A stretch of DNA of 45,673 nt from an uncultured Clostridia bacterium (GCA_947165825.1 CAMVBX010000001.1:1-45673); one strand, 5' to 3'; positions 4,950 through 42,873 are shown, counted from the first letter of the stretch. The notes: a model not told the origin generated them from the sequence alone. Numbers and translations are program-made.

Positions 4950-5907
4950 TGATCTCTCCTTTCTGCGCGGGCTGGGCGAGCTCCGCGCTGCGGTTGGCCT
5001 TGAATACGTCCGCAACCTCGCTGATGGTGATGAAGGCCATGGGGTCCAGACGATTCACCAGATTTTTCATTTTGTTGATCTGAAAGCGGTTCACCACAAA
5101 ATAGACGATGGTTTTGGGCCGGTTGGAAAAGCCGCCGGAGGCGGCCACCCGGGTGGTGCCGCACTCGAAAGCGCGGGACAGGGCGGCGCAGATCTCATCC
5201 GGCCTTTCCGTTACGATCATGGCGCACTTTTCCCGATCGATGCCTTCAACAATAAAGTCCACGGTTTTCAGACCGGCCATATAGGTGACGATGGAATACA
5301 GGGGGAGGATCCAGCTGGAGAGGATGCAGCCGCAGAGGGTATACAGGACCAGGTTGTAGGCCATAACGAAGGCGCCCACCGTGATCCCCAGGCGTCTGGC
5401 GAAAAGCACGGCCAGGACCTCGATCCCGTCCATGGCGCCGCCGCCCCGTACGGCGAGGCCGCTTCCCACGCCGGAGATCATTCCCCCGAAGAGGGCGCAG
5501 AGCAGCAGATCCCGGCCTGCCAGGGGAGAGGCGATATCCGTCTGGATGGGGAGCACGTCGGTGATCAGCCAGGCGGTCAGAGAATAGATGCCGACGGTAT
5601 ACAGGGAGTACAGCGTGAAGAGCAGGCCCTGCCGTTTGAGGCCGTAAAGAAACAGCGGCGTATTGAGCAGAATCAAAAAGAAGGAGAGGGGAAGCCAGTC
5701 CGGGGTGAGCTGACCCAAAAGCATGGCGGTACCGGAAATGCCGCTGTCATACAGCTGCACAGGATTGAGAAACAGGGCTACGCCGATGGCGTTCACCACC
5801 CCGGCAAGCGTGAGGATCAGCAGGTTGCGCGGCCGAAAATCTATCGGCCTGTTCAGCTTTCGTGTGTGCTTTCGGCGCTTCATCTGCGGCTTTTTCTTCG
5901 ATTTCAT
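4942..5907 (-). CDS. YitT family membrane protein (DUF2179)
   Basis: Start trimmed to MKSKKKPQ. It has a multi-TM N-terminal part and the C-terminal DUF2179-like segment KCAMIVTERPDEICAALSRAFECGTTRV. Its ATGA overlaps the PP2C stop. Confidence 0.85.
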   Translation of the reverse strand: MKSKKKPQMKRRKHTRKLNRPIDFRPRNLLILTLAGVVNAIGVALFLNPVQLYDSGISGTAMLLGQLTPDWLPLSFFLILLNTPLFLYGLKRQGLLFTLYSLYTVGIYSLTAWLITDVLPIQTDIASPLAGRDLLLCALFGGMISGVGSGLAVRGGGAMDGIEVLAVLFARRLGITVGAFVMAYNLVLYTLCGCILSSWILPLYSIVTYMAGLKTVDFIVEGIDREKCAMIVTERPDEICAALSRAFECGTTRVAASGGFSNRPKTIVYFVVNRFQINKMKNLVNRLDPMAFITISEVADVFKANRSAELAQPAQKGEINE

Positions 5908-8536: not shown

Positions 8537-9835
8537 TCAGCCCCCGGAAATGAGCACGTCCCGGAATATCACCCAGGGCAGGACGTAGCCGCCGGAGCAG
8601 ACCAGCTCCGCGGAGATGCCGCCGACGTTCTTCAGCATGTCCGCCAGGTTGCCGGAGATCATGGTCTCGTTGACGGCCTTGCCCAGCTTGCCGCCGGTGA
8701 TCCGGAAGCTGTTTTTGGCCACGCCGGAGAAGTCTCCGTTGGGGGAGGGTTCCCCGCCGGAAAAGCGGCCCACCAGAAGGCCGTTCCGGATGCTCCCGAT
8801 GAGCTCCTCCAGGGTCTTGTCCCCCGGTGCCATAACGGGGCAGAAATCCTCGTTCAGCGCCCGGGGCAGGCCGGTGCGGTTCGCCCCGTAGAGGGAAAGA
8901 CAGAAGCTCTCCAGCCGACCGTCCTTCAGCCAGTCGTAATCCCGGGAGAGGAAGCCCTCCCCGGTGTACTTGTCCCCGCCGCAGATGCGTCCGTCCAGGG
9001 GGGCGGCGCGTACGGAGAGGGACGGGGAGGCCACGGCCTCTCCCAGCCTGTCCTTCCAGGGGCTGGTGCCGTTGATCAGAGCCTGGTCGCTGCAGAACAG
9101 GTCTGCAGCCACCTCCAGGAATTCCATCAGCAGGTCCGGATGCACCAGGATATCCCCCATACAGGTCCCCTGGGTGGTCTCCGCGTCCAGGCTCCGCTCC
9201 GCGCTCTGCAGGTCCTTCGCCAGGGTGCCCAGCTCCAGGAAGGGCTGATCCAGATCCGGCGCGGTGACGGTGCTGCCGAAAAAGCTGGTGGCCTGTTCTC
9301 CCGCATGGCCGGAGAACATGAGATCCACGCTGTAATGCCCGGAAATATCCGTGAACCGGGAGCCCGCGGTGTTCAGATATACCTCCCGGGTGAGACGGTG
9401 CTCCGTGATGAGCTCCTCCACGATGACGTGGGGGTAGGCTTTTGCGATGGAGTCCAGCAGCTCCTTTGACCGCTCAAAAAGCCGGTCCGGATCCGCCTTG
9501 AGCGTGCCGGAGGTGAAATCCCCGGTCTCCGGGGCGGGAGCCAGATCCCAGGCCGGGTCGGATTCCCCGGAGGCGGCCACGGCCATGCAGTCCTCCGCCG
9601 TCCGGCGGATGGCGTCCGCATCCAGGCGGTTCACCTTGGCGGTGCCCCGCCGTCCGTCCCGGATGGCGGTGAGGCTGAGCTCCCGGTCCAGCAGGCTGCG
9701 CATGAGGGTGAATTCCCCGCCCAGGGCGTTCAGCTCCAGGGTCTCGCTGTCCTGCACCCGTACGCTGGCCTTCTCCGCCCCCAGGGCGGTGAGGGCGTCC
9801 AGTGCGGCCTGTGCCGCGGCGAAAAGCTTATCCAT
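8537..9835 (-). CDS. pmbA: PmbA/TldE family metalloprotease subunit
   Basis: 432 aa of the PmbA_TldD family, lacking HExxxH. It lies directly downstream of TldD with a 3-nt gap and has a GGAGG RBS. Confidence 0.8.
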   Translation of the reverse strand: MDKLFAAAQAALDALTALGAEKASVRVQDSETLELNALGGEFTLMRSLLDRELSLTAIRDGRRGTAKVNRLDADAIRRTAEDCMAVAASGESDPAWDLAPAPETGDFTSGTLKADPDRLFERSKELLDSIAKAYPHVIVEELITEHRLTREVYLNTAGSRFTDISGHYSVDLMFSGHAGEQATSFFGSTVTAPDLDQPFLELGTLAKDLQSAERSLDAETTQGTCMGDILVHPDLLMEFLEVAADLFCSDQALINGTSPWKDRLGEAVASPSLSVRAAPLDGRICGGDKYTGEGFLSRDYDWLKDGRLESFCLSLYGANRTGLPRALNEDFCPVMAPGDKTLEELIGSIRNGLLVGRFSGGEPSPNGDFSGVAKNSFRITGGKLGKAVNETMISGNLADMLKNVGGISAELVCSGGYVLPWVIFRDVLISGG

Positions 9836-9838
9836 CCC

Positions 9839-11224
9839 TCATCGACCTCCTATCGTCAGCCGGCAGCGCAGGGCGGGTCCGCCCAGACCCACGGCCATGG
9901 GCTGCTTTTTGCCGCAGTAGCCGCTGCTTTCCCAGACCACCTTGTCCGAGACCATGTCCACGGTTTTCAGCATATCGAAGGCTACGCCGGAGATGGTGGT
10001 ATCCAGGATGGCTTGTCCCAGCTTGCCCTTCTTGATCTCATAACCCAGGGTGACGCCGAACATGAACTCCCCGGTGGTGTCCGCCTGACCGTTGTTGGTG
10101 TTCAGCAGATAGTATCCGTCCTCCACGGAGGCGATGATGTCCTCCAGCTTGTCCTTGCCGGGGTGCACCGCCGTGTTCCGCATGCGGATGAGGGGCTCGT
10201 CGGAGAAGGAATAGGCCCGGGCGTTGCCCAGGGGCAGAGCTCCGAAGCGCTGGGCGCTCTCCCGGTCGTGCATGAAGCCCACCAGGACCCCGTCCCGGAT
10301 CAGCGGGGCATCCTGGGCCTCTACCCCCTCGTCATCGCAGTATACCGGAAGAGGAGCGGTTTCCCCGAAGGCCTCGCGGGCGAAATCCGTCATATTCACC
10401 AGGGGGGAGGCCACGACCTTGCCCAGGTTGGGACCGCCCACGCTGCCGCCGATCACCAGGTCCGCCTCCACGGTATGGCCCACGGCTTCGTGGGCCAGCA
10501 TGCCGCTGAGTTCGCCCCCCAGGATGCAGGTGCATTTCCCCGCCTTGGCGTAGACCCCCTCCCGCTTTTCCATGAGCTGCAGGTGGAGCTTTTCCACCTG
10601 CCCCCGGAGCTCGGCGGGATCCCGGAACCAGTCGTCAAAGCCCCCGAAGCCGCCGAAGGCCTTGGAGAGCTCCACCGCGTCCCCGTTCTTCGTTTCGGCG
10701 TTGAGATCCACGTAGAGATAGCACCGGGGCACGGCGGTATGCGCCTCCGCCCCGTCGCCTGTGACCAGATGCTTTTCCGTGCTGTCGCAGGCGACCACCA
10801 GCCGACGGCTGGTGAGATGGGGGAGCCCGGCGATCCAGGCGTCCAGCTCCCGCAGGTAATCCAGGTAGACCTTCTGCTCCGCGTCGGTCCAGGAGGTACC
10901 CGGGGCGATCAGGGCGCGGGGAACGGCTTTCCGGGCTGCCTTGCCCTTGTTCAGGTGCCGGTCCAGCACGGCGGCGTTCTCCTCTGCGCTTTTCAGCACC
11001 CGGCGCAGGGCCTCCTCATTCACCTCCGGCATGGAGGCAAAGCCGTAGGAGCCGCCCCGGCAGACCCGGGCGGAAACACCGCTCACCTCGCTGCGGAGGT
11101 TCACCACCGGGGTACCGGACAGGAGGACGATCCGCCGGTCCCGGTTCAGCTGAGCCCGCAGCTCCCCCTGCTCCCCGGAGGGGATCAGGGACGAAAAGCC
11201 ACGGGGAATCTGCAAATCCACCAA
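9839..11224 (-). CDS. tldD: TldD family metalloprotease
   Basis: 461 aa with the HEAVGH zinc motif in the MLAHEAVGHTVEADL context. The start is TTG at 11224 or GTG at 11221, after an aaaggaaa RBS. Confidence 0.85.
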   Translation of the reverse strand: MVDLQIPRGFSSLIPSGEQGELRAQLNRDRRIVLLSGTPVVNLRSEVSGVSARVCRGGSYGFASMPEVNEEALRRVLKSAEENAAVLDRHLNKGKAARKAVPRALIAPGTSWTDAEQKVYLDYLRELDAWIAGLPHLTSRRLVVACDSTEKHLVTGDGAEAHTAVPRCYLYVDLNAETKNGDAVELSKAFGGFGGFDDWFRDPAELRGQVEKLHLQLMEKREGVYAKAGKCTCILGGELSGMLAHEAVGHTVEADLVIGGSVGGPNLGKVVASPLVNMTDFAREAFGETAPLPVYCDDEGVEAQDAPLIRDGVLVGFMHDRESAQRFGALPLGNARAYSFSDEPLIRMRNTAVHPGKDKLEDIIASVEDGYYLLNTNNGQADTTGEFMFGVTLGYEIKKGKLGQAILDTTISGVAFDMLKTVDMVSDKVVWESSGYCGKKQPMAVGLGGPALRCRLTIGGR

Positions 11225-17163: not shown

Positions 17164-17379
17164 ATGCCCACCTCCCGTTGAATCTGTTCGCATGCCGTAA
17201 GTATAGCACAGATGCGGAAAATCCGCATCCGGTTCTTTCCCGGCTGCGGGATGCGGAAAGGACTGCACCGGTATCCCCCGGACCTTGCGGCGAGCTGCAT
17301 TTTATGGTATCTTTGCAGACGGAAACCGGCTGCAGATCCGGGGAAGACCGGTACGGGAGAGGGGGGCTCGGCGTTGGCG

Positions 17380-18633
17380 ATGGATATCGGCGTTCTGGCT
17401 GCGCTGGCGCCGCTGCTGTTCCTGCTCCTGGGCCTGGGGTTCACGGTGGTGATCGACCCGTATATCCGGCGGGAGAACCGGCGGATCATGCTGGTCATCG
17501 TCCTGCTGTGCCTCACGCTGATCGCGCAGAATCTGGTGGAAAACAGCCTCGCCTCGGGACCCGCGCGGGTGACGGGAAGAACGCTGGTATCCGTTTACGG
17601 TTATATTGTGCGCCCGGTTTTCCTGATCCTGTTCCTGTATATCGTGCATCCGGAAGGGAAGCACTGGCTTTGGTGGGGGCTTGCGGCCGGGAATGCGGCT
17701 GTCTGCCTCACGGCGCTGTTTTCCGATATCTGCTTCATGATCGGCAGCGACAACCACTATCACCCCGGGCCTCTGGCGAACACGACCCTCTATATCAGCG
17801 CAGTTCTGTTGGCCAATCTTCTGGTTCAGACGCTGCGGAGCCGCCGGGAAGCCGGAAAGCAGGAAAAATGGATCCCGGTCTTCATCGCGGCCATGATCGT
17901 GCTCTCCGTCCTGATGGACAGCCGGGTACAGGCGGCGGCGGACCAGCCTGTCGCTTTCCTGACCATCGCCATCGTGGTGGGCAGCGTATTCTATTACCTC
18001 TGGCTCCATCTGCAGTTTGTCCGGGGGCATGAGCAGGACCTGAGGGCGGCTCAGCGCATCACGATCATGGCATCCCAGATCCGGCCGCATTTTCTCTACA
18101 ACACCATCGCCACGATCAGAGCCCTGTGCAGGCGCGATCCGGAAAAGGCGGAGAAGGTAGCGGAGGATTTCGGCCGGTACCTGCGGCAGAACATGGATTC
18201 TCTGGAGAGCGCAGGGCTGATCCCCTTTGAAAAAGAGCTGGAGCACACGCGCTGCTATGCCGATATTGAAATGGTGCGGTTCGAGAACATCCGCGTGGAG
18301 TACGATATCGGGGACCGGGTATTTACATTGCCCCCCCTGACAGTGCAGCCTATGGTGGAGAACGCGATTCGCCATGGCGTCCGGATCCGGAAGGAAGGCG
18401 TGGTCCGGGTGAGTTCCCGCTTCACGGACGGCTGCCATGAGATCCGGATACAGGATAACGGGATCGGATTTGACGTAAACGCCATAGAGGCAGCCGGGGG
18501 CCCCCATATCGGCATCCGCAACGTGCGGGAGCGGATCGAAACGCAGTGCGGCGGTTCGCTCCTCCTGGAAAGCCGGATGGGAGAAGGGACAACGGTCATC
18601 ATCCGGATCCCCGGGCGGAGGGAAAAAGCATGA
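17380..18633 (+). CDS. Sensor histidine kinase, LytS/YehU-type (His_kinase + HATPase_c) with polytopic N-terminal sensor
   Basis: About six N-terminal TM helices, the phospho-acceptor motif IRPHFLYNTIATI and the ATPase motif VQPMVENAIRHGV. The start is uncertain; the ATG at 17380 was chosen and its RBS is weak. Confidence 0.8.
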   Translation: MDIGVLAALAPLLFLLLGLGFTVVIDPYIRRENRRIMLVIVLLCLTLIAQNLVENSLASGPARVTGRTLVSVYGYIVRPVFLILFLYIVHPEGKHWLWWGLAAGNAAVCLTALFSDICFMIGSDNHYHPGPLANTTLYISAVLLANLLVQTLRSRREAGKQEKWIPVFIAAMIVLSVLMDSRVQAAADQPVAFLTIAIVVGSVFYYLWLHLQFVRGHEQDLRAAQRITIMASQIRPHFLYNTIATIRALCRRDPEKAEKVAEDFGRYLRQNMDSLESAGLIPFEKELEHTRCYADIEMVRFENIRVEYDIGDRVFTLPPLTVQPMVENAIRHGVRIRKEGVVRVSSRFTDGCHEIRIQDNGIGFDVNAIEAAGGPHIGIRNVRERIETQCGGSLLLESRMGEGTTVIIRIPGRREKA

Positions 18634-19442
18634 AAGTGATCTGCGTTGACGATGAGCGTCTCCTGATGGAGGACACCCTGGCCATGTGTCTCTCCCTGCC
18701 GGAGATCGACGAGGCGAAGGGATTTGTCTGGGCTCGGGACGCGCTGGAATGGACAGAACATAACCCGGTGGATCTGGCGCTTCTGGATATCGACATGCCG
18801 GATATGAACGGGATCATGCTGGCGGCGGAGATTAAGAACCGATCCCCCGGGACAGCGATTATTTTCCTCACCGGCTATGCCCAGTATGCGGTGGACGCGT
18901 TTGCCGTGCGGGCTTCCGGCTATTTGCTGAAGCCGGTCACCCGGGAGATGCTGGCCGCAGATGTGGCCTATGCGCTCTCCGGGAGGCGGAAGACGGCGGC
19001 GGTCCATGTGTTGGTCAGGACCTTCGGCCTGTTTGACGTATTTCTGGACGGGGCTCCGGTGAGATTCAAGATGGCGAAATGCAAGGAGCTTCTCGCCTAC
19101 CTGGTGGATCGGCAGGGAAGCAGCGTATCCCGGGCCGAGCTCTCCGCCGCCCTGTGGGAGGACCGCCCCTATGACCGGAAGCAGCAGAAGCAGCTGGATG
19201 TGTACATCCGCTCCCTGCGGGAAACGCTGGCGGATAACGGAATTGAGAACATTCTGGAGATGCAGAGGGGGACCCTGCGGATTATCCCGGAAACCTTTGA
19301 CTGTGACGCGTACCGTTTCTTTTCGGGGGACAGCGACGCGGTCAACGCCTATCGGGGGGAATACATGAGCGCCTATCCCTGGGCGAGCATCACGGAAGGC
19401 GCGATGTTCTGGCAGCAATGGGGGGAAGGCGGGAAGGATTGA
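18630..19442 (+). CDS. Response regulator: REC + SARP-type winged helix + truncated BTAD (COG3947-like)
   Basis: Its ATGA overlaps the kinase stop. REC motifs are LLDIDMPDMNG and YLLKP. The output domain LFDVFLDGAPVRF..AKCKELLAYLVDRQGSSVSRAELSAALWEDRP...LDVYIRSLRETL...LRIIPETFDCDAYRF matches the SARP/OmpR-family wHTH followed by the beginning of a BTAD. Confidence 0.85.
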   Translation: MKVICVDDERLLMEDTLAMCLSLPEIDEAKGFVWARDALEWTEHNPVDLALLDIDMPDMNGIMLAAEIKNRSPGTAIIFLTGYAQYAVDAFAVRASGYLLKPVTREMLAADVAYALSGRRKTAAVHVLVRTFGLFDVFLDGAPVRFKMAKCKELLAYLVDRQGSSVSRAELSAALWEDRPYDRKQQKQLDVYIRSLRETLADNGIENILEMQRGTLRIIPETFDCDAYRFFSGDSDAVNAYRGEYMSAYPWASITEGAMFWQQWGEGGKD

Positions 19443-19462: not shown

Positions 19463-19505
19463 AAGCCGTTTTTTTCCAAGAAACTGGAAGGAACGGCTTT
19501 TCTAT
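19463..19505 (+). terminator. Weak terminator candidate after the response regulator
   Basis: Stem aagccgtt / aacggctt around a long, partly paired loop, followed by a T-rich tctatt. Confidence 0.35.
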
Positions 19506-19536
19506 TGGACATTTATTGGACACGGACGGATAGACT
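19505..19536 (+). promoter_or_regulatory. Direct-repeat (TTGGACA-N4-TTGGACA) activator-type promoter, copy 1
   Basis: ttggaca ttta ttggaca cggacgga tagact. Two identical heptamers have 11-nt periodicity. The 3' heptamer lies 8 nt from a TAnnCT -10-like hexamer. The first 28 nt are identical to 40166-40193. Confidence 0.55.
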
Positions 19537-19555
19537 GTTTTCGGAAAGAGAATCG

Positions 19556-19782
19556 GACCCATGTCCCGTTCCGGGACATGGGCCAGACTGTAGACAAACC
19601 CGAAAATGGAACGAAAACGGGAAGGAAGATAGCGCGAAAGAAACCCAGGAGGGGTGTCTTTCGCGTTCAATCAGAAGTTTTTCGAACAATTTCTACCGTA
19701 TTTCCTGTTCGAAAAACTTGCTTCAGCGGGGCGACAAGACTTTGTCGACACGCTGACCCATGTCCCGTTCCGGGACATGGGC
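19556..19782. repeat. 227-bp hairpin-rich element bounded by ~43-nt imperfect inverted repeats (MITE/REP-cluster-like or structured 5' leader)
   Basis: The identical 28-nt gacccatgtcccgttccgggacatgggc occurs at 19556-19583 and 19755-19782. Each copy has an 11-bp stem and a 3-nt loop. The adjacent flanks cagactgtagacaaa (19584-19598) and actttgtcgacacgctga (19739-19756) are inverted relative to each other. Internal hairpins lie at 19633-19665 (9 bp) and 19678-19716 (11 bp). Confidence 0.6.
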
Positions 19783-19821
19783 AGCCGTCGGACGATCCGC
19801 CGCGGGAAAAGGAGTACGGCC

Positions 19822-20109
19822 ATGTCGGAACCTGGAAGCATATATGAACTGAGCGCCGATCAGCTGGAAGAGGTCAGCGGCGGAAGCCCGCAGCTCGGCA
19901 TCTACCGTCCCGGTTTCCGGTTCAGGGAAGAATCCCTGCGGTATTTTCGCCAGTGCGTCGGGGAGGAGACCTATGTCCGAGCCATGTCCAGCGAGGCGGG
20001 GCGGCGGCATCATTACGTCGTGGCCAGAGCGTTTCTGAGCCAGGCGGACTGGGAGAAATTCGTCTGGATCGAGCAGTTTGGCTCGCTGGACGGCTTTCCG
20101 GGCTGCTGA
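19822..20109 (+). CDS. Double-glycine-leader precursor protein (21-aa leader, 74-aa core)
   Basis: An AAGGAG RBS lies 7 nt before the ATG. The leader MSEPGSIYELSADQLEEVSGG fits the LSxxELxxIxGG consensus (L-12, L-7, V-4, GG). The core has two Cys, one of them the C-terminal residue. The gene lies immediately upstream of a C39-ABC exporter. Confidence 0.75.
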   Translation: MSEPGSIYELSADQLEEVSGGSPQLGIYRPGFRFREESLRYFRQCVGEETYVRAMSSEAGRRHHYVVARAFLSQADWEKFVWIEQFGSLDGFPGC

Positions 20110-20548: not shown

Positions 20549-22726
20549 ATGAGCGGAATGAAGATCCGGTCGCCCCTCGCCAGGGGCGTTGCCAGGGTCC
20601 CCGTGATCCTGCAGCTGGAGGCGCTGGAGTGCGGCGCGGCGGCGCTGGCCATGGTCATGGCGTACTACGGCAAATGGGTGCCGCTGGAGCAGGTGCGCCT
20701 GGACTGCGGCGTCTCTCGGGACGGGAGCAAGGCTAAAAACATCTATCTGGCGGCGGAGCGCTACGGCTTTTCCGTTCAGGCCTTCCGCATGAGCCCGGAC
20801 GCCCTGCGGGAAAAGGGACGGTTCCCCTGCATCATCCACTGGAACATGAACCACTTTGTGGTGCTGGACGGGTTCCGGGGAAGGCACGTGTACCTGAACG
20901 ATCCTGCCAGGGGGGCGATCAGGGTGACCTGGGAGGAGTTCGACCGCTCCTTTACCGGCGTGACGATCATCCCCGTTCCCTCGGAACGCTTCGAGCCCAG
21001 CGGCAAGCGCCGCAGCACCGTGGAATTTGCCCGGAAGCGCCTGGCGGGCGCAGGGGCGGCGGTGGCCTTTGCGATGCTGACCACGGCGATCTCCTATCTC
21101 TTCGGCATTGCCAACTCCGTCACCTCCCGGATCTTCATGGACCGGCTGCTGACGGGGATCAATCCGGACTGGCTCTATCCCTTCATCGGTCTGATGGTCA
21201 TTCTGGCACTGATCCAGCTCATCGTGGCCTGGGCGCAGACGGTCTACTCCCTCCGGATCAACGGGAAGATGGCCGTCATCGGCAATACCACATATATGTG
21301 GAAGGTGCTTCGCCTGCCCATGGAATTCTTTTCCCAGCGGCTGGCGGGAGATATCCAGTCCCGGGCGGCCATGAACGCCGCCATCGCGGGAACGCTGGTG
21401 AACACCTTCGCTCCGCTCCTGCTGAATACCGGGATGATGATCTTCTACCTGGTGCTGATGCTGCGGCAGAGCCCGATGCTGACGCTGATCGGACTGGTGA
21501 CCCTGGTGCTGAACATCTTCATGTCCAGAGTGATCTCCAATCAGCGGATCAATACCACCCGGGTACAGATGCGCGACGCCGGAAAGCTGGAGGCGGCCAC
21601 AGTCAGCGGCATCGAAATGATCGAAACCATCAAGGCAAGCGGCGCGGAGAACGGCTTTTTCCAGAAATGGGCGGGCTATCAGGCCTCCGTCAATCTGCAG
21701 AGCGGAAAGATCGCGCTGACCGACTCCTTTCTGGGCATGATCCCGACCCTTCTCAGCACCCTGGCCGACTGCGCCGTTCTGGTGCTCGGCGTATGGATGA
21801 CCATGCAGGGCCGGTTCACCCTGGGCGCGGTGCTGATGTTCCAGGGGTTTCTGGGATCCTTCATGTCCCCGGCCATGACCCTGGTGAGCGCGGGTCAGAC
21901 GATCCAGGAGATGCGCACCCAGATGGAGCGGGTGGAGGACGTGATGGAATACCCCACGGACGAAAACGTCCTGGAGCGGGAGCCGGAAGCCCCGGAGCTG
22001 GCCAAGCTCAGGGGAAATGTGGAGCTCCGAAACGTAACCTTCGGTTATTCCCGGCTGGAGGCGCCCCTCATCCGGGACTTCTCCCTGAAGCTGAAAACCG
22101 GTGACCGGGTCGCCCTGGTCGGGGCGTCCGGCTGCGGAAAATCCACGATCTCCAAGCTGATCTCCGGCCTCTATCCGCCCTGGAGCGGGGAGATCCTTTT
22201 TGACGGCAAGCCCCGGAACGCCTATCCCCGGGAGGTCTTGTCGGGCTCGCTGGCCGTGGTGGATCAGGACATCATCCTTTTTGAGGATACCATAGCCAAC
22301 AACATCAAGATGTGGGACGACTCCATTCAGGATTTTGAGATGATTCTGGCCGCCCGGGACGCCCGGCTGCATGAGGACATCACGAAGCTTTCCGGGGGGT
22401 ATCAGCATCGGCTGACCAGCGGAGGCCGCGATCTCTCCGGCGGCCAGCGGCAGCGGCTGGAGATTGCCCGGGTCCTGGCCCAGGATCCCACCGTCATCAT
22501 TCTGGATGAAGCCACCTCCGCCCTGGATGCAAGAACGGAAAACGAGGTCGTTCAGGCCATTCGGGACCGGGGCATCACCTGCATCGTGATCGCCCACCGT
22601 CTCAGCACCGTGCGGGACTGCGACGAGATCATCGTCCTGGACAAGGGCCGGGCGGTGGAACGCGGCACCCATGATGAGCTGATGGCGCTGGGCGGCCTGT
22701 ATGCGGACCTGGTGGCGAACGAGTAA
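20549..22726 (+). CDS. Peptidase C39 domain-containing ABC transporter (PCAT; NHLM ABC1-like)
   Basis: C39 motifs are LQLEALECGAAALAMV (catalytic Cys) and HWNMNHFVVLDG (His). A 6-TM domain follows. The NBD carries Walker A GASGCGKST, the signature LSGGQRQR and Walker B IILDEATSALD. The start is ATG 20549 (alternative 20558). Confidence 0.9.
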   Translation: MSGMKIRSPLARGVARVPVILQLEALECGAAALAMVMAYYGKWVPLEQVRLDCGVSRDGSKAKNIYLAAERYGFSVQAFRMSPDALREKGRFPCIIHWNMNHFVVLDGFRGRHVYLNDPARGAIRVTWEEFDRSFTGVTIIPVPSERFEPSGKRRSTVEFARKRLAGAGAAVAFAMLTTAISYLFGIANSVTSRIFMDRLLTGINPDWLYPFIGLMVILALIQLIVAWAQTVYSLRINGKMAVIGNTTYMWKVLRLPMEFFSQRLAGDIQSRAAMNAAIAGTLVNTFAPLLLNTGMMIFYLVLMLRQSPMLTLIGLVTLVLNIFMSRVISNQRINTTRVQMRDAGKLEAATVSGIEMIETIKASGAENGFFQKWAGYQASVNLQSGKIALTDSFLGMIPTLLSTLADCAVLVLGVWMTMQGRFTLGAVLMFQGFLGSFMSPAMTLVSAGQTIQEMRTQMERVEDVMEYPTDENVLEREPEAPELAKLRGNVELRNVTFGYSRLEAPLIRDFSLKLKTGDRVALVGASGCGKSTISKLISGLYPPWSGEILFDGKPRNAYPREVLSGSLAVVDQDIILFEDTIANNIKMWDDSIQDFEMILAARDARLHEDITKLSGGYQHRLTSGGRDLSGGQRQRLEIARVLAQDPTVIILDEATSALDARTENEVVQAIRDRGITCIVIAHRLSTVRDCDEIIVLDKGRAVERGTHDELMALGGLYADLVANE

Positions 22727-22741
22727 GGCGGGGACGAGGAC

Positions 22742-24931
22742 ATGGGCTGGTTTGAGAACCAAATCGAAGAAAGACGCAGGGCCGACCAGCAGCTGCTGGA
22801 GGACTCCTTCCGCAAGATCGCCGGCGTGGTGCTGGGACAGCGCGCGGCGGAGAAGATCGGCGATGCCCGGATCGTCACGAAGGGCGCCATCGATGAGATC
22901 CTGAAGCACTATCATATCCAGCCGACGGAGCTTCCGGAGGACATCGCGGATACAGGCGACCAGCTGGATTATTGTCTGCGGCCCCATGGCATCATGCACC
23001 GCACCGTGGAGCTTGCGGAGGGCTGGTATCGGGACGCGTTCGGCCCCATCCTGGCCTTCACGAAGGAGGAAAGGATCCCCGTGGCGCTGCTGCCCGCCGC
23101 GATCCGCGGCTACAGCTTCACCGATCCCCGGACCGGGAAACGGGAAACCCTCAACAAGGTCACCGCCGCCCGCTTCGCCTCATCGGCGATCTGCTTTTAT
23201 CGGCCGCTGCCGCCCAAAAAGCTGGGGATCCCCGATCTCCTTCTGTACATGAAGCGCTGCGTGACCCTGAGCGATGTCGTCCTGATTGTTGCGGCAACGC
23301 TGGCGGTATCGGCAGTTGGACTGCTCATGCCCCGGATCACCAAGGCCCTGACCGGTCCGGTGCTCCTCAGCGGACGGAGCAGCGCCCTGATCGGCATCGC
23401 GGTGGCCATGGTCTGCATTTCCATCTCCTCCCGGCTCCTCAACAGCACGAAGGGGCTGGTCGGGAATCGCCTGGAGCTCAAGACCACACTGGGGGTGCAG
23501 GCGGCCATGATGATGCGGCTCCTGTCCCTTCCCGCGAGCTTTTTCCGGCAATACAGTCCGGGGGAGCTGAAAAGCCGCGCCATGTCGGTGAAGCAGCTCT
23601 GCTCCAGCATGCTGAGCATGGTCATGACGACCGGGCTGACATCTCTCACCTCCCTCCTGTATGTGGGACAGATCTTCCGTTATGCCCCGGCGCTGGTGAT
23701 CCCCTCCCTGATCACCATCCTTATCACGGTGGCGGTTTCTGCGGCTGCGACTTTAATGCAGATCGGGATCAGCCGGAAGCACATGGAGCATGCTGCCAAA
23801 GAATCCGGCATGAGTTACGCGCTGATCACCGGCGTACAGAAGATCAAGCTGGCCGGCGCGGAAAAGCGGGTCTTTGCCAAGTGGCTGGATGTATATGCCG
23901 AAGGCGCGGAGCTGGAGTATAACAGTCCGGCGTTTATCAAGCTGAACGGCGTGTTCTCCCTGGCGATCAGCCTTTTTTCCACCATCGTCCTGTACTATAC
24001 CGCGGTGAGCAGCGGCGTTGACCAATCCTCGTATTACGCCTTCACCGCATCCTATGGGATGCTCATGGGCGCGTTCCTGTCGTTGGCCGGAGTCGCCCTG
24101 TCCGCTGCCCGTATCCGGCCGATTCTGGAAATGGCTGAACCCTTCCTGCAGACCCCGCCGGAAACCGCGGAGGGCAAAAAGCCGGTGACAAGGCTCACCG
24201 GGAGCGTCGAGCTGGAGCATGTGTCGTTCCGGTATGGGAAGAATGAGCCGTATGTCCTGAACGATCTGTCGCTGAAGATCCGGGCGGGGGAGTATGTCGC
24301 CGTGGTAGGCAGGAGCGGCTGCGGCAAGTCCACCCTGGTCCGCCTGCTGCTGGGCTTCGAAAAGCCGGATACGGGAGCGATATTCTATGACGGCAGGGAT
24401 CTGGACAGCCTGGATCTGCCCTCCCTGCGCAGGAAGATCGGCACGGTCGCCCAGGACGCGGGACTGTTCCAGGGAGATATTTATTCCAATATCGTGATTT
24501 CCGCTCCGGAGCTTACGCTGGACCAGGCCTGGGAGGCTGCCGAAACGGCGGGCATTGCCGAGGAGATCCGGGCTATGCCCATGGGTATGCATACGCTCAT
24601 CTCCGAGGGGCAGAACGGGATTTCCGGCGGTCAGCGCCAGCGCATCATGATCGCCCGCGCCATAGCGCCGAAGCCGAAGCTGCTGATTTTCGACGAGGCG
24701 ACCAGCGCATTGGACAACCGGACCCAGCGCCGGGTCTCCGAAGCCCTGGATGCCATGGGCTGCACCCGCATCGTCATCGCCCATCGGCTGAGTACCATCC
24801 GGCACTGTGACAGGATCCTGGTGCTGGACGGGGGAAGGATCGTGGAGGACGGTACCTACGATCAGCTGATCGAACAGAACGGCTTTTTCGCCGAGCTGGT
24901 GGCGCGGCAGAGACTGGATACCGCTGGATAG
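22742..24931 (+). CDS. ABC transporter permease/ATPase without peptidase domain (NHLM ABC2-like)
   Basis: 729 aa. An N-terminal non-peptidase domain of about 160 aa is followed by a TMD. The NBD has GRSGCGKST, ISGGQRQR and LIFDEATSALD. Confidence 0.9.
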   Translation: MGWFENQIEERRRADQQLLEDSFRKIAGVVLGQRAAEKIGDARIVTKGAIDEILKHYHIQPTELPEDIADTGDQLDYCLRPHGIMHRTVELAEGWYRDAFGPILAFTKEERIPVALLPAAIRGYSFTDPRTGKRETLNKVTAARFASSAICFYRPLPPKKLGIPDLLLYMKRCVTLSDVVLIVAATLAVSAVGLLMPRITKALTGPVLLSGRSSALIGIAVAMVCISISSRLLNSTKGLVGNRLELKTTLGVQAAMMMRLLSLPASFFRQYSPGELKSRAMSVKQLCSSMLSMVMTTGLTSLTSLLYVGQIFRYAPALVIPSLITILITVAVSAAATLMQIGISRKHMEHAAKESGMSYALITGVQKIKLAGAEKRVFAKWLDVYAEGAELEYNSPAFIKLNGVFSLAISLFSTIVLYYTAVSSGVDQSSYYAFTASYGMLMGAFLSLAGVALSAARIRPILEMAEPFLQTPPETAEGKKPVTRLTGSVELEHVSFRYGKNEPYVLNDLSLKIRAGEYVAVVGRSGCGKSTLVRLLLGFEKPDTGAIFYDGRDLDSLDLPSLRRKIGTVAQDAGLFQGDIYSNIVISAPELTLDQAWEAAETAGIAEEIRAMPMGMHTLISEGQNGISGGQRQRIMIARAIAPKPKLLIFDEATSALDNRTQRRVSEALDAMGCTRIVIAHRLSTIRHCDRILVLDGGRIVEDGTYDQLIEQNGFFAELVARQRLDTAG

Positions 24932-24999
24932 CCCGTACGCTGAAACCGGGCTTTTCGGAATACAGATCGAAAACCAATATAGATTAGGAGGATATTGCA

Positions 25000-25161
25000 G
25001 TGGAAAACGTGAAAAAGACAGATTTGCCGGAGAAGGATACGGAACAGGTCGCCCTGGAGCCTAACGAGCTGAGTCAGGTGGCGGGTGGGGGAGATCCCTT
25101 CGCCGATATCCCCAGGGTGCCGGAGAATCCCATTGACGATGAGCTCAGGAAAGACGGTTAA
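25000..25161 (+). CDS. Small GG-leader peptide A1 (53 aa; predicted 23-aa core GDPFADIPRVPENPIDDELRKDG)
   Basis: Not in the supplied ORF track. A GTG start lies 8 nt after the AGGAGG at 24986-24991, and there is an in-frame stop at 24985. The leader ...LEPNELSQVAGG fits the double-glycine consensus exactly. The peptide is a paralog of A2. Confidence 0.7.
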   Translation: MENVKKTDLPEKDTEQVALEPNELSQVAGGGDPFADIPRVPENPIDDELRKDG

Positions 25162-25174
25162 GGAGGAACGCACC

Positions 25175-25339
25175 ATGCTGGAACTGCGGAAGAACGGGAA
25201 AGGGACTGATCGGGAGCCGGAAAAGGTGGCGCTGGATCTCAACGATCTGGATCTGGTAACGGGATCCGGCGATCCCTTTGAAAATATCCCCCGGGTACCG
25301 GAAAAGGAGATCGATCCCGAGCTCCGGAACGATGCCTGA
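25175..25339 (+). CDS. Small GS-leader peptide A2 (54 aa; predicted 23-aa core GDPFENIPRVPEKEIDPELRNDA)
   Basis: An internal ATG of the listed 84-aa ORF lies 8 nt after an AAGGAGG that overlaps the A1 stop. The leader is ...LDLNDLDLVTGS. The core is 16/23 identical to A1. Confidence 0.75.
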   Translation: MLELRKNGKGTDREPEKVALDLNDLDLVTGSGDPFENIPRVPEKEIDPELRNDA

Positions 25340-26708
25340 ACGGCGGGAGCTGACCGGGCGGACCGGGATCTGCGTTCTTGCGGCGATCCTGCTCCTGGCG
25401 CTTCTCTCCATCTCTTCCCCCGCTCCGGCTGCAGCCGCCGGGGAGACGGCGTATATCGTGAAGATCAAGGCGTCCGATGCCCCGTTCACCGTTGTCGGGG
25501 AAGGGGAGATGCGGCGTCTGGACCGGGCCGGGCTCCTGGAATGGGCGGAGCCCGATGGGGAAGCTCAGCTGCTGGGCACCCTGTCCCCCTACTATGCGGA
25601 TGAACAGTGGAACCTGGATATGATCGGCGCGGAGGCTGCCTTCCGGCAAAACTGTCTTGGGCAGGGGATCCGGGTGGGCGTCCTGGATTCCGGCGTGAAT
25701 CCCCATCCGGACTTCGGGGACCGTCTGCTGCCGGGACATAACTACGTCCAGGACGCCGAGGATCCGGAGGACACCTCGGATTCCTACGGCCATGGCACCC
25801 GCATCGCGGGCCTCGTCGCCGCTGCCGGCGAAGCGGGATATATCGGCACCGCCCCCGGAGCGGAGATCGTACCCATCAAGGTAACGGATGGAAAATCCGT
25901 CAAGGTCAGCGTCATTTGCGAGGCGATCTACGGGGCGATCGACGACTTCGGCTGCCGCGTTCTGAACTTGAGCATGGGCGTGCGGACAGACTATCAGTCC
26001 CTGCGGGATGCCGTGGCCTATGCGGAAGCCAGGGGCGTCGTGGTGGTTTCCGCGGCGGGCAACAGCGGCACCTCCGCCATGTACTACCCCGCCGGGTACG
26101 AAACGGTCATCGGCATCGGAGCGGTGGACTGCAACAGCGTGCTGTATTACCACTCCGATCACAATGAAAGCGTTTTTCTGACCGCCCCGGGGGTGGATGT
26201 GCGCAGCACGGCCTCCCGCGGCGGCTATACCGCCTCTACAGGCACCAGCTTCGCGGTGCCCCAGGTATCCGGCGCGGCGGCGGTGCTGCTGGGGATGGAC
26301 GGCGGTCTGAGCCCGGAGGAGATCCGGAGGATTCTGGCAGAAACCGCCAGTGATGCCGGAGACGAGGGCTATGACGAGTATTTCGGCTACGGGATCCTGA
26401 ACCTGGCGGGCTGCGTCTCCCGCCTGACGGAAGGGGAAGAACTGCCCGGGGAACCGTGCAGTTTCCTCCCGGAAACAGGTCCCGCCGCAGCGGTCCGCAG
26501 CAACGTGAACGAAGAAATCGATTGCACCTATCTGCTGGCCGAATATGACACGGACGGCGTCTGCCTGAGCGTGCAGACATGGCGTTTTACTCTCCCGGCC
26601 GGAGGAATTGCGGAGCTCACCCTTCCCGAGGAAAACGCGAACTACGGACAGTTTCTCTATGATTCGAAAACCCTGTGCCCCCTGGCCGAGGCGCGCAAAT
26701 CGCACTGA
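25332..26708 (+). CDS. Secreted subtilisin-like serine protease (peptidase S8)
   Basis: Its ATG overlaps the end of A2 (an 8-nt overlap). It has a signal peptide or anchor, ICVLAAILLLALLSISSPAPAAAA. The catalytic motifs are VGVLDSG (Asp), SYGHGTRIAG (His) and GTSFAVPQVSG (Ser). Confidence 0.9.
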   Translation: MPERRELTGRTGICVLAAILLLALLSISSPAPAAAAGETAYIVKIKASDAPFTVVGEGEMRRLDRAGLLEWAEPDGEAQLLGTLSPYYADEQWNLDMIGAEAAFRQNCLGQGIRVGVLDSGVNPHPDFGDRLLPGHNYVQDAEDPEDTSDSYGHGTRIAGLVAAAGEAGYIGTAPGAEIVPIKVTDGKSVKVSVICEAIYGAIDDFGCRVLNLSMGVRTDYQSLRDAVAYAEARGVVVVSAAGNSGTSAMYYPAGYETVIGIGAVDCNSVLYYHSDHNESVFLTAPGVDVRSTASRGGYTASTGTSFAVPQVSGAAAVLLGMDGGLSPEEIRRILAETASDAGDEGYDEYFGYGILNLAGCVSRLTEGEELPGEPCSFLPETGPAAAVRSNVNEEIDCTYLLAEYDTDGVCLSVQTWRFTLPAGGIAELTLPEENANYGQFLYDSKTLCPLAEARKSH

Positions 26709-40165: not shown

Positions 40166-40205
40166 TTGGACATTTATTGGACACGGACGGATATTCTGCT
40201 ATACT
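40166..40205 (+). promoter_or_regulatory. Direct-repeat (TTGGACA-N4-TTGGACA) promoter, copy 2
   Basis: The 28 nt at 40166-40193 are identical to 19505-19532. The 3' heptamer lies 8 nt from tattct (40192-40197). Read as a sigma-70 promoter instead, TTGGAC (40177-40182), a 17-nt spacer and TATACT (40200-40205) also fit. It lies about 100 nt upstream of the STAS gene. Confidence 0.6.
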
Positions 40206-40304: not shown

Positions 40305-40601
40305 ATGACCATCAACAAAACCGGAAGCGGAAGCAAGCTGACCCTGGCCTTGGCGGGCCGTCTGGATACCGTTACCGCGCCAGAGCTGGAAAAGGAACTG
40401 CAGGATTCCCTGGAGGGGATCGATACGCTCATTTTCGATTTCTCCGGTCTGGAGTACGTCTCCTCCGCCGGGCTGCGTGTGCTGCTTTCGGCGCAGAAGA
40501 CCATGAACAAGCAGGGAGAAATGAAGCTTACTCATGTGAACGAAAGCATCATGGAAATTTTTGAGGTCACCGGCTTTACGGATATCCTGACCTTCGAATA
40601 A
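40305..40601 (+). CDS. STAS domain anti-sigma-factor antagonist (SpoIIAA/RsbV-like)
   Basis: 98 aa after an AAGGAGG RBS. The conserved phospho-Ser context FSGLEYVSSAGLRVLL is present, and the C-terminal MEIFEVTGF segment is typical of the family. Confidence 0.9.
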   Translation: MTINKTGSGSKLTLALAGRLDTVTAPELEKELQDSLEGIDTLIFDFSGLEYVSSAGLRVLLSAQKTMNKQGEMKLTHVNESIMEIFEVTGFTDILTFE

Positions 40602-40620
40602 GCGGAGGGAGAAGAGCGGA

Positions 40621-41238
40621 ATGAAGACAGCAAGGATCAAAGTCACGACCCGGGGCGAAGGAATGGAAGAAGCCCTGGCGGCAACGGAGAAACTGGGGAC
40701 CGACAGCGGTCTCGCGCACAAGGAGCAGCTGCGGCTCCGCCTGTTGGCGGAGGAGCTGATCGGCCTGATGCGGGGCATTGCGGGCAGCGTGGAGGCCTGC
40801 TATCAGGCGGAGCAGGAGGAGCGGAGATTCCGCCTTTGCCTCAGCGCCGATGTTACGCTGGACAAGGAGATGCGCAAGCAGCTGCTGGCCGCCTCCTCCA
40901 GCGGGAAAAACGCGGCGGCCCGGGGATTCATGGGAAAACTCCGGGAAATGGTGGCCATCGTTGTGCTTCCAAAGAGCCAGAGTTCGCCCGGGGTGTCCAA
41001 TCTCTCTCTGGGTCTGATCAGCATGGGCAGCCCCAGAGGGTATGTTTCCGGCGCGGATACCTATAACTGGTCCATGAGCACCTATATGTCCGAGGTCAAA
41101 AGCAAGCGGGGAGAGAACGCGGAAGCCGACGAGGCCTGGGACGAACTGGAAAAGTCCATTGTGGCCAACCTGGCGGATGAGGTCACCGTACAGATCGTGG
41201 GGCACAACGCGGAGATCACCATTACCAAGGCTTTCTAA
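40621..41238 (+). CDS. Hypothetical protein (205 aa) inside the partner-switching module
   Basis: GGAGGGAG RBS and codon usage like its neighbours. No family recognised. Confidence 0.6.
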   Translation: MKTARIKVTTRGEGMEEALAATEKLGTDSGLAHKEQLRLRLLAEELIGLMRGIAGSVEACYQAEQEERRFRLCLSADVTLDKEMRKQLLAASSSGKNAAARGFMGKLREMVAIVVLPKSQSSPGVSNLSLGLISMGSPRGYVSGADTYNWSMSTYMSEVKSKRGENAEADEAWDELEKSIVANLADEVTVQIVGHNAEITITKAF

Positions 41239-41304
41239 GGCACAGTACGGCATAGACGAAGGAAACGGCGCTGCCACGAATATGGGAAGAGGAGACGGAA
41301 GGGT

Positions 41305-42873
41305 ATGGAAAAAAAGCGGATTACGATCCCGCTCTCCGGGCGGATCGACTCCAATAACGCAGCAGCGGTGGAACAGGAGATCCTGGCGAAGCTGGGGGCG
41401 GAGCGGGATATCGCCCTGATCCTGGACGCGGAGAAGCTGGAGTATATTTCCAGCGCGGGCTTGCGGGTGATCCTGCACCTGAAAAAGATGATCCCGGAGC
41501 TGAGCATCCGAAACGTCAGCTCCGAGGTTTATGAGATCCTGGAGATGACCGGGTTCACCGAGATGATGACGGTGGAAAAGGCCTACCGGGTCGTCTCGGT
41601 GGAGGGCTGCGAGGAGATCGGGCGCGGCGCAAACGGCACGATCTACCGGATCGACCGGGATAATGTGGTCAAGGTTTACAACAATGCCGACGCTCTGGCG
41701 GATATCCAGCATGAGCGGGAGGTGGCAAAGCTTGCCCTGATCCTGGGCATCCCCACGGCCATTTCTTACGACGTGGTCCGGGTGGGGGAGAGCTATGGCT
41801 CTGTTTTCGAGCTGCTGAACGCCAGGTCCTTCTCCAAGATCATCGCAACGGAGCCGGAGAAGCTGGACTGGTGCGTGGAGGAATACGTAAAGCTGCTGAA
41901 GACGATCCACGGCACGCTGGTTCCGGCGGGCAAGCTGCCGGATATGCGGGAAACGGCCCTGGACTGGGCCCGGTTTATGCAGGACTATCTGCCCCGGGAG
42001 GCCGGAGCGAAGCTGCTGGCCCTGGTGGAGGCGGTGCCCAGGGACGATCATATGCTCCACGGGGACTATCATACGAAGAATCTGGAGCTGCAGAATGACG
42101 AGGTCCTGCTCATCGATATGGACACCCTGGCGGTGGGCCATCCCATCTTTGAACTGGCGAGCATCTACAACTCCTTCGTCGGGTATTCCGAGCTGAAGCC
42201 GGAAACGATCCTGGCGTTCCAGGGCTTCGACCAGGAAACCGGCCGGACCTTCTGGCACAAGGCGCTTTCCGCCTATCTGGGCACGAACTGCCCCGCGAAG
42301 CTGCGGGAGGTGGAGGACAAAGCCCGCATCATCGGGTATACCCGCATGATCCGCCGCTCCATCCGGCGCAAGGGATTGGAGACGGAGCAGGGCAGAGCGG
42401 AGATCGAGCTGTGGAAGCGGGAGCTTCTGGAGCTGCTGGAACGGACGGACAAGCTGACTTTCTCCCGCAATGAGCTGGAGCTTGAAGCCGTCGACGAGAA
42501 CCTGGCGCAGGTGCAGACCTTCGTGGATGAGCGTCTGGAGGCGGCGGACTGTCCGCCGAAGGCGCAGATGCAGATCGGCGTGGCGGTGGAGGAGATCTTC
42601 GTGAATATCGCCCACTATGCCTATGCGCCGGATAAGGGCAGCGCCGCGGTGCGCGTGGAAGTCAGCGATGATCCCGTTACGGTGTCCATCACCTTCATCG
42701 ACCAGGGTATGCCCTATGATCCCTTGGCCAGGACCGATCCGGATATATCGCTCCCGGTCAGCGAGCGGGACGTCGGCGGGCTGGGGGTCTTCCTGACCAA
42801 ACAGCTCATGGACGACGTGACCTATTCCTATCGGGACGGACGGAATATCCTGACCCTGAAAAAGAAGCTGTGA
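41305..42873 (+). CDS. Triple-fusion regulator: STAS - APH/choline-kinase-like kinase - GHKL anti-sigma kinase (SpoIIAB-like)
   Basis: N-terminal STAS with EKLEYISSAGLRVILHL. The central kinase fold has GRGANGTIYRI, VVKVY, LHGDYHTKNL and LLIDMD. The C-terminal HATPase has AVEEIFVNIAHYAY, IDQGMPYDP and VGGLGVFLTKQLMD. Confidence 0.85.
   Translation: MEKKRITIPLSGRIDSNNAAAVEQEILAKLGAERDIALILDAEKLEYISSAGLRVILHLKKMIPELSIRNVSSEVYEILEMTGFTEMMTVEKAYRVVSVEGCEEIGRGANGTIYRIDRDNVVKVYNNADALADIQHEREVAKLALILGIPTAISYDVVRVGESYGSVFELLNARSFSKIIATEPEKLDWCVEEYVKLLKTIHGTLVPAGKLPDMRETALDWARFMQDYLPREAGAKLLALVEAVPRDDHMLHGDYHTKNLELQNDEVLLIDMDTLAVGHPIFELASIYNSFVGYSELKPETILAFQGFDQETGRTFWHKALSAYLGTNCPAKLREVEDKARIIGYTRMIRRSIRRKGLETEQGRAEIELWKRELLELLERTDKLTFSRNELELEAVDENLAQVQTFVDERLEAADCPPKAQMQIGVAVEEIFVNIAHYAYAPDKGSAAVRVEVSDDPVTVSITFIDQGMPYDPLARTDPDISLPVSERDVGGLGVFLTKQLMDDVTYSYRDGRNILTLKKKL

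Follow-up and report, generated by a model that had tools for sequence, protein, structure and literature searches.

Short peptides with a double-glycine leader are normally classed either as bacteriocins or as private pheromones. The Phr/CSF peptides of Bacillus, by comparison, carry Sec signal peptides, are released by subtilisin, Epr and Vpr and, after re-import by Opp, bind to cytoplasmic Rap proteins. A two-step maturation is described for class II lanthipeptides, in which a secreted S8 protease removes a hexapeptide once the double-glycine cut has been made, as for CylB/CylA (GDVQAE), LicT/LicP (NDVNPE) and MrsT (GDMEAA) (PMC10885120). For the substrates of peptidase-C39 ATP-binding cassette (ABC) transporters (PCATs), hydrophobic residues at positions -4, -7 and -12 are the rule (PMC10885120). 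Here we analyse a 45,673-nucleotide stretch of DNA from an uncultured Clostridia bacterium (GCA_947165825.1, CAMVBX010000001.1:1-45673), the whole of which we refer to as the window. Two adjacent small genes in it, A1 and A2, are, judging by their sequence, tandem paralogues encoding the precursors of an undescribed family of double-glycine-leader peptides, which fits neither of the usual classes well.

The original prediction, drawn from the window alone, had proposed two mini-genes at these positions, each with a ribosome-binding site 8 nt ahead of its start, A1 opening with GTG and A2 lying hidden inside a mechanically called open reading frame (ORF) of 84 amino acids (aa; 25085..25339), and all of this is borne out. 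The motif AGGAGG occupies 24986-24991 before A1 and 25161-25166 before A2, and the spacing to the start codon is exactly 8 nt in each. The leaders, which end in VALEPNELSQVAGG (A1) and VALDLNDLDLVTGS (A2), both contain L-12, E/D-8, L-7, V-4 and G-2, as had been claimed, and residues -2/-1 at the predicted cleavage site are GG in A1 and GS in A2. The predicted cores agree with the earlier description in their length of 23 aa, their identity at 16 of 23 positions and their net charge of -4; each contains four Pro and no Cys, Ser or Thr, and their grand averages of hydropathy (GRAVY) are -1.15 and -1.29. In an AlphaFold model of the A1 precursor the leader forms a short helix, as expected, and the core is extended with a one-turn helix at DELR (pLDDT, the per-residue model confidence, ~87).

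Comparison with related sequences confirms that A1 and A2 are genuine genes, coding for protein and subject to purifying selection. Run against 5.8 billion proteins, a profile of the two recovered 17 homologues (E from 1e-27 to 1e-8). Copies of the genes are present in six Oscillospiraceae genomes of rumen or gut origin and on ten metagenome contigs. In a codon-level comparison of 13 copies, the proportions of synonymous (pS) and non-synonymous (pN) differences over the 23 core codons were 0.54 and 0.18 (ratio 0.34), and pN/pS over the last 15 leader codons was 0.75. Between A1 and its orthologue in one related locus (the loci compared are designated by L numbers, here L001), 13 of 15.3 synonymous sites are changed, against 2 of 53.7 non-synonymous ones. 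Substitutions inconsistent with coding had been named beforehand as a possible refutation; the pattern among the orthologues fits coding, with synonymous sites saturated and the core amino acids nearly unchanged. In a close relative (L016), ATG stands in place of the GTG of A1, with ribosome-binding-site spacing and twin layout unchanged, and the GC content of A1 and A2 by codon position matches the pattern of the neighbouring genes. The antisense ORFs across this stretch are the usual artefacts of high GC content. At two other loci the tandem paralogues have diverged leaders beside cores that are identical at the nucleotide level (L005, 9956..10135 and 10164..10340) or nearly identical (L001, 9755..10138), which suggests gene conversion or concerted evolution limited to the core.

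The family extends well beyond these relatives. Searched exhaustively with the profile, 1.84 billion representatives gave 128 clusters (50% identity) at E<=1e-3, and all searches pooled amount to 227 distinct sequences. Their leader consensus is E-L-x-x-[DE]-x-L-[DE]-x-V-[STA]-G-[AGS], with G-2 in 97%, V-4 in 83% and L-7 in 91% of the 227 sequences and with A, G or S at -1 in 99% (A 52%, G 41%, S 6%). The core consensus, G-[ND]-P-F-x-[DN]-[IV]-P-R-V-P-x-x-P-I-D-x-x-L-[RK]-x-x-x, is C-terminal in all cases and includes invariant F, R and D residues, its C-terminal 17-mer being the most conserved portion of the family. The core measures exactly 23 residues in 156 of 170 canonical cores, and in some members the GG site and the NPF motif are separated by additional residues. 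Across these 170 cores the charge ranges from -6 to +4, and Ser occurs in 60, Thr in 75 and Cys in two. The acidic, Ser/Thr-free core of the original prediction thus holds for the window pair, as a local feature, and not for the family, whose traits are a constant length, the motif and the all but complete lack of Cys. The exclusion of lanthipeptide and sactipeptide chemistry stands, since the cores lack the required Cys plus Ser/Thr.

Like the original prediction, we recognise no described peptide family in the core. Pfam and NCBIfam contain no model of it, A1 and A2 remaining without a match in either (in NCBIfam even at E<=1), and no source names it: family members are 'hypothetical protein' at most, and the majority carry no annotation. 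Literature searches on the motif, on peptide families of Clostridia or the rumen that combine a PCAT with an S8, and on the accession of the L009 genome yielded no description of it either. NHLP, Nif11 and other precursor models for ribosomally synthesised peptides that carry post-translational modifications (RiPPs) gave no match above cut-off for A1, A2 or a set of 84 members. Among these 84, scattered leader-type matches below cut-off involve the Pfam models Mersacidin (4), L_biotic_typeA (4) and ComC (2); weak sub-threshold matches in NCBIfam concern TIGR03949 (6 of 84, best E 4e-4), and a few family members weakly match the cytolysin/mersacidin and lichenicidin A2 models. The family was not found in viral contigs and plasmids.

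The export route is of a known type. Genes of a C39 peptidase-ABC exporter lie immediately upstream of A1 (Table 1), the Peptidase_C39 domain of the PCAT being recognised at E 4.4e-33 with its Q/C/H/D motifs visible in the sequence. The A1 and A2 leaders satisfy the rules for PCAT substrates (G-2, G/S-1, V-4, L-7, L-12 and a cognate C39-ABC protein in the cluster), and the exporter trio adjoins a peptide gene wherever the flank is long enough, the four-gene modules of L011, L012 and L015 among them. Export of A1 and A2 by the PCAT is well supported by these features, and cleavage is predicted after GG in A1 and after GS in A2. No modification enzyme common to the clusters was found among the compared loci, and neither LanM/LanBC nor radical-SAM enzymes occur in any cluster, so that the simplest assumption is a linear product without modification. 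Three macrocyclic alternatives (lasso-peptide, graspetide/marinostatin-like and PatG-type) were considered and rejected: the cores have no conserved acceptor or nucleophile where one would be required, no ATP-grasp gene is conserved, and the nearest relatives of the S8 protease encoded beside A2 are ordinary subtilisins.

The strongest contextual clue, absent from the original prediction, is the co-conservation of the peptide genes, judged by gene neighbourhood, with downstream genes for this S8 protease and for a giant wall-anchored protein. The cluster occurs in gut and rumen Clostridia of 40-66% GC. An order like that of the window (exporter trio, S8, peptide or peptides, giant) is found in L001, L005, L007 and L016; a divergent exporter and an S8(-SLH) protein accompany peptide and giant in L002-4, L014 and L020. 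The isolate genome L009 harbours two giant-plus-peptide pairs, S8, partner-switching genes and the exporter, and its cluster also contains ATP-grasp and GH3-type ligase genes. In L027, giant, peptide and S8 lie next to an AgrC/ComD-type kinase and a LytTR regulator, and L028 combines exporter, extracytoplasmic-function (ECF) sigma factor, peptide, giant and S8-SLH. Two peptides accompany one giant in the window, L001, L005 and L007, and a single peptide copy is present in L002-4, L014, L015, L026 and L027. From this comparison the exporter emerges as the universal partner of the peptide, S8 and giant as frequent partners and the regulators as lineage-variable. In L028 the regular peptide ends after PRVPPQPIP; just 5' of the ECF sigma factor of this locus, a 66-aa ORF (4984..5184) closes with a degenerate leader-plus-core string (ELSDDELCMLSAAGDPFSQPPDP...) and may be a decayed or repurposed member.

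Table 1. Features of the peptide locus and its surroundings; coordinates are those of the window.
Feature	Position	Strand	Basis and remarks
Sensor histidine kinase	17212..18633	+	Pfam His_kinase (PF06580) + HATPase_c; likely start M57 at 17380; about six transmembrane helices (hydropathy) precede these domains
Response regulator, receiver + OmpR/SARP-type winged-helix (Trans_reg_C)	18630..19442	+	Pfam; start overlaps kinase stop codon
Box TTGGACATTTATTGGACACGGACGGATA, putative operator/promoter	19505..19532	+	7+4+7 direct repeat TTGGACA-TTTA-TTGGACA; 5' of export/peptide operon
Highly structured 5' leader	about 19535..19825	+	Fold z-score -6.9; identical perfect 23-nt hairpins CCATGTCCCGTTCCGGGACATGG at 19559-19581 and 19758-19780
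Third double-glycine-leader ORF (GG95), 95 aa	19822..20109	+	Leader MSEPGSIYELSADQLEEVSGG, then 74-aa core; unrelated to A1/A2
Short HlyD-like accessory protein of exporter, 139 aa	20122..20541	+	Matches only first 54 positions of TIGR03794; kept beside PCAT in other loci
PCAT, predicted leader protease and exporter	20549..22726	+	TIGR03796, 904 bits (cut-off 853); Pfam Peptidase_C39 + ABC_membrane + ABC_tran
Second ABC permease/ATPase subunit, no peptidase domain	22742..24931	+	TIGR03797, 727 bits (cut-off 709)
A1 precursor, 53 aa	25000..25161	+	GTG start; leader 25000-25089; predicted core 25090-25158, GDPFADIPRVPENPIDDELRKDG
A2 precursor, 54 aa	25175..25339	+	ATG start; leader 25175-25267; predicted core 25268-25336, GDPFENIPRVPEKEIDPELRNDA
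Subtilisin-like S8 protease, predicted secreted or anchored	25332..26708	+	Pfam Peptidase_S8 1.5e-49; hydrophobic N-terminus
Giant wall-anchored protein, ~3,093 aa	26741..36022	+	Signal peptide, Calx-beta, CARDB, Big_2, three SLH domains
Second identical 28-nt box TTGGACATTTATTGGACACGGACGGATA	40166..40193	+	5' of STAS gene/operon
Partner-switching-like module	40305..42873	+	STAS anti-sigma antagonist 40305..40601; unknown 205-aa protein; STAS-kinase-RsbW-like fusion 41305..42873

The ATG of the S8 gene overlaps the stop codon of A2 (ATGCCTGA), and a comparable overlap occurs in L009. S8 and peptide genes are adjacent in the window, L001-5, L007, L009, L014, L016, L017, L019, L020, L027 and L028, and this tight coupling, in either gene order, argues for a direct relationship between peptide and protease. 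The catalytic triad is intact (equivalents of D32, H64 and S221 in the alignment), and the position of BPN' G166, on the floor of the S1 pocket, is occupied by Tyr in the window and by Tyr or Phe across the homologues (Arg in L009); such a replacement of Gly suggests a narrow specificity. The protein carries SLH domains in L002-4, L010 and L028. The hexapeptides that would follow the GG-type cut, GDPFAD in A1 and GDPFEN in A2, resemble GDVQAE, NDVNPE and GDMEAA, with position 6 variable in the family and the N-terminal segment differing in length in some members; by analogy, we propose a second trimming step by S8. Strings such as D-x-PF and IDPE-like ones in the S8 prodomain prompted the idea that the core mimics it, which was discarded as the core profile matched S8 proteins only at E>0.2. 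At L010 (6475..7398), the S8 protein beside the peptide ends after the His region and is fused to SLH repeats, lacking the catalytic Ser; this locus has recombinase genes and may be a degraded copy.

Across loci the giants linked to the peptides measure ~2,600-3,100 residues, of which about 2,000 aa in the centre of the window protein have no recognisable domain: sequence and profile comparisons with PDB chains and Pfam returned only SLH, Calx-beta, Big_2, CARDB and Flg_new_2. The giant is nonetheless homologous along its length to those beside peptide genes in L009, L014, L027 and L028, even at 29% identity. Its residues 1390-2500 were modelled with AlphaFold from a six-sequence alignment at a mean pLDDT of 36.5, too low to use, and no binding domain was identified by domain searches or in the structure model. 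Two parts of it, both without recognisable domain, stand out: a stretch at about residues 1400-1760 that is rich in Gly, aromatic and hydrophobic residues, and the C-terminal ~1,000 residues, 29% identical to L009; repeated blade-like motifs in the giant hint at a beta-propeller.

Upstream of the exporter lie a two-component system and the first of two identical boxes. A scan for sigma-70 promoters between 19300 and 27000 found no match, and we therefore take the TTGGACA repeat for the target of a regulator, not for a standard -35 element. The 7+4+7 geometry is that bound by winged-helix regulators of the OmpR/PhoB/SARP type, so that the neighbouring regulator probably drives both boxed operons. 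The TTGGACA heptad repeat recurs just past the regulator gene in L001 (3105) and L016 (4690), the only loci in which orthologues of the window kinase were found. No Rfam match occurs anywhere in the window, including the structured 5' leader, and the hairpin of that leader was not found in related loci. GG95, the first gene of the operon, has a core rich in Arg and aromatic residues with Cys as its last residue; its only family matches are weak ones in the leader, and an orthologue was found only in L001.

Two further SLH proteins and a VanX-like dipeptidase follow the giant in the window, and then the STAS/RsbW-like set. Related STAS/SpoIIE/RsbW-like genes occur inside or next to the cluster in L001, L007, L009 and L010. 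The last gene of the set joins, in an unusual single chain, a STAS domain, an aminoglycoside-phosphotransferase-like kinase and an RsbW-like HATPase_c_2 domain, and a DUF218 gene comes next; in L007 an HATPase_c_2 gene and a DUF218 gene adjoin the exporter. Farther away, a TldD/PmbA metallopeptidase pair (8537..11224, minus strand) lies 14 kb upstream on the opposite strand and is not conserved with the cluster; enzymes of this kind process some peptides, such as microcin B17. The segment 1001-4100, around an IS200-like transposase ORF (3355..4098, minus strand), has a GC content of 0.49-0.55, compared with ~0.62 elsewhere.

The explanation that we favour, with a probability of roughly 0.45, is that A1 and A2 give rise to PCAT-exported linear 23-mers which are handled by S8 and whose role is not that of an antibiotic but of a signal or ligand associated with the giant. 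The C39 domain of the upstream PCAT would recognise the ~30-residue leader by its hydrophobic residues at -4, -7 and -12, G-2 and G/S-1; the PCAT would then cut after GG (A1) or GS (A2) and, with the help of its TIGR03797 partner and the short HlyD-like protein, export the linear, unmodified 23-mer. Outside the cell, the S8 subtilase, translationally coupled to A2, would probably trim the 23-mer in the way that CylA follows CylB and LicP follows LicT, and the product may serve as a diffusible signal or a ligand with a bearing on how the adjacent giant is produced or functions. For the window lineage, the probable driver of the operon is the adjoining pair of histidine kinase and SARP/OmpR-type regulator, acting via the TTGGACA-N4-TTGGACA box. 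The conservation of the core above that of the cluster proteins, its fixed length and its obligatory free C-terminus favour a conserved binding partner over a strain-private pheromone.

Several points weigh against this explanation. Core position 6 is D, N, E or G across the family, so that a strict hexapeptide site like those of CylA and LicP is not obvious. In the lineage of L011, L012 and L015 only the HlyD stub, the PCAT, the second ABC subunit (ABC2) and the peptide occur together, with neither S8 nor giant nearby. The core in L005 is ~83% conserved, compared with 51-63% for exporter, S8 and giant, and conservation of a core above the other cluster proteins across genera is the reverse of what is seen in most private quorum-sensing pheromones. 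The regulators differ between clusters (a two-component system in the window, an ECF sigma factor in L028, partner switching in L009 and L010, none in L002-L005), and hence no conserved receptor is evident. Finally, modification enzymes encoded at unlinked sites are possible.

This last point leads to a reading of A1 and A2 as RiPP precursors whose modifying enzymes, encoded elsewhere, would introduce hydroxylation, epimerisation or changes of Arg, Asp or Phe. The exporter is an NHLP-type pair of the kind that usually serves modified peptides, the invariant F, R and D could be modification sites, and the L009 cluster has its ATP-grasp and ligase genes; but no candidate enzyme is common to the clusters, the minimal modules consist of exporter and peptide only, the usual RiPP pattern of conserved leader and variable core is reversed here, and the NHLP, Nif11 and other precursor models stay below cut-off. 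We regard this as the least probable of the readings considered. Hardly better placed is an unmodified class II (two-peptide) bacteriocin exported via the PCAT, even though two neighbouring double-glycine-leader peptides beside a PCAT are the classic class IIb layout and the weak TIGR03949 matches mentioned above point to a class IIb model (lactobin A/cerein 7B). The criteria for class IIb include the helix-packing motifs GxxxG, AxxxA and SxxxS (PMC13289728), none of which occurs in the strongly hydrophilic, anionic cores (GRAVY about -1.2, charge -4), and the clusters have no small membrane protein of the immunity type in common. It is the hydrophilic product, the missing packing motif and the missing immunity partner that make us disfavour a bacteriocin; moreover, many loci have one peptide copy (L002-4, L014, L015, L026, L027), it is the core that is conserved and the leader that varies, and the database matches are weak and below cut-off.

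Two further readings centre on the surface proteins. The peptide might mainly regulate the co-encoded S8, as a competitive inhibitor or as a substrate that times its activity, and in this way control processing or shedding of the giant. Such a role would suit the tight coupling of peptide and S8 genes in either order, the surface location of S8 and giant (with SLH domains on S8 in L002-4, L010 and L028) and the Tyr or Phe of the S1 pocket with the narrow specificity that it suggests; yet the core profile does not resemble S8 prodomains, the peptide occurs in some lineages with no S8 nearby, and linear peptides rich in Pro are as a rule substrates, not tight inhibitors. We think this role improbable. 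More credible, though still doubtful, is that the 23-mer is no signal at all but partners the giant structurally or functionally (as its ligand, as a factor in its assembly or release, or as a substrate attached or taken off by S8) and acts only at the surface of the producer. The peptide gene directly flanks the giant gene despite rearranged gene order and in lineages of 40-66% GC, L009 has two giant-plus-peptide pairs, and conservation over the whole core at a fixed 23 residues (156 of 170) is expected for docking on a conserved protein surface; the core is modelled as an extended stretch with one-turn helix (pLDDT ~87). Copy numbers, however, are not 1:1, there being two peptides to one giant in the window, L001, L005 and L007; the giant is not near the peptide and exporter of L011, L012 and L015; and the giant has yielded no binding domain. 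A related and bolder conjecture, to which we give the same tentative standing, is that 23-mer, S8 and giant form an unrecognised three-part cell-surface system, in which the peptide would be the obligate extracellular partner of the giant (a ligand, a switch, or a factor for release or assembly that is gated by the protease) and neither a bacteriocin nor a conventional pheromone.

The family is unusual in being widespread among gut and rumen Clostridia at a fixed 23 residues, with a hydrophilic core that is conserved across genera and tied to a surface subtilase and a wall protein of ~3,000 residues. It is invisible to current annotation, and with a profile made from it hundreds of small genes would receive an annotation. 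Should the favoured explanation of a signal or ligand for the giant prove true, it would open the first way to the function of a large, unstudied class of surface proteins in Clostridia and would extend the known uses of PCAT exporters.

Among described systems, the NHLP/Nif11 cassettes (TIGR03794/03796/03797) share the exporter, both subunits of the pair scoring above the TIGR03796 and TIGR03797 cut-offs and the accessory protein matching the N-terminus of TIGR03794. They differ in that the A1/A2 leader has ~30 residues and no nitrile-hydratase or Nif11 homology, that the HlyD-like protein is only 139 aa long here, and that no cyclodehydratase, LanM or radical-SAM partner is present. With Phr/CSF there would be a likeness if an extracellular S8 processes the exported pro-peptide, the best-conserved and presumably active part lying at the extreme C-terminus; by contrast, A1 and A2 use a GG leader and a PCAT instead of Sec, and neither Opp nor RRNPP genes were seen in the window. 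The class II lanthipeptide systems of CylB/CylA, LicT/LicP and MrsT resemble ours in the PCAT cut after GG, GS or GA, here predicted, and in an extracellular S8 encoded within the cluster. The A1/A2 system, however, is without LanM and without Cys, its putative hexapeptide is followed by a conserved 17-mer instead of a lanthionine core, the residue at position 6 differs across the family, and the window S8 is nearest to ordinary subtilisins. The double-glycine pheromones and class II bacteriocins of the ComC/ComAB, BlpC and lactococcin G type are similar in their short precursors with G-2, G/A/S-1 and hydrophobic residues at -4/-7/-12, in an adjacent dedicated C39-ABC exporter with no modification enzyme, and in a two-component system beside the operon, as in the window and L027. 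Here, in contrast, the core family matches no model and surpasses the leader in conservation, the product has a hydrophilic and, in the window, anionic character, the exporter is of the two-subunit NHLP type, the window kinase is of the PF06580 type and not HPK10, and the peptide genes are co-conserved with S8 and the giant wall protein. What is known, then, is the export route; what is new is the peptide family, its inverted pattern of conservation, with the core above the leader, and its link to a subtilase and a giant wall protein.

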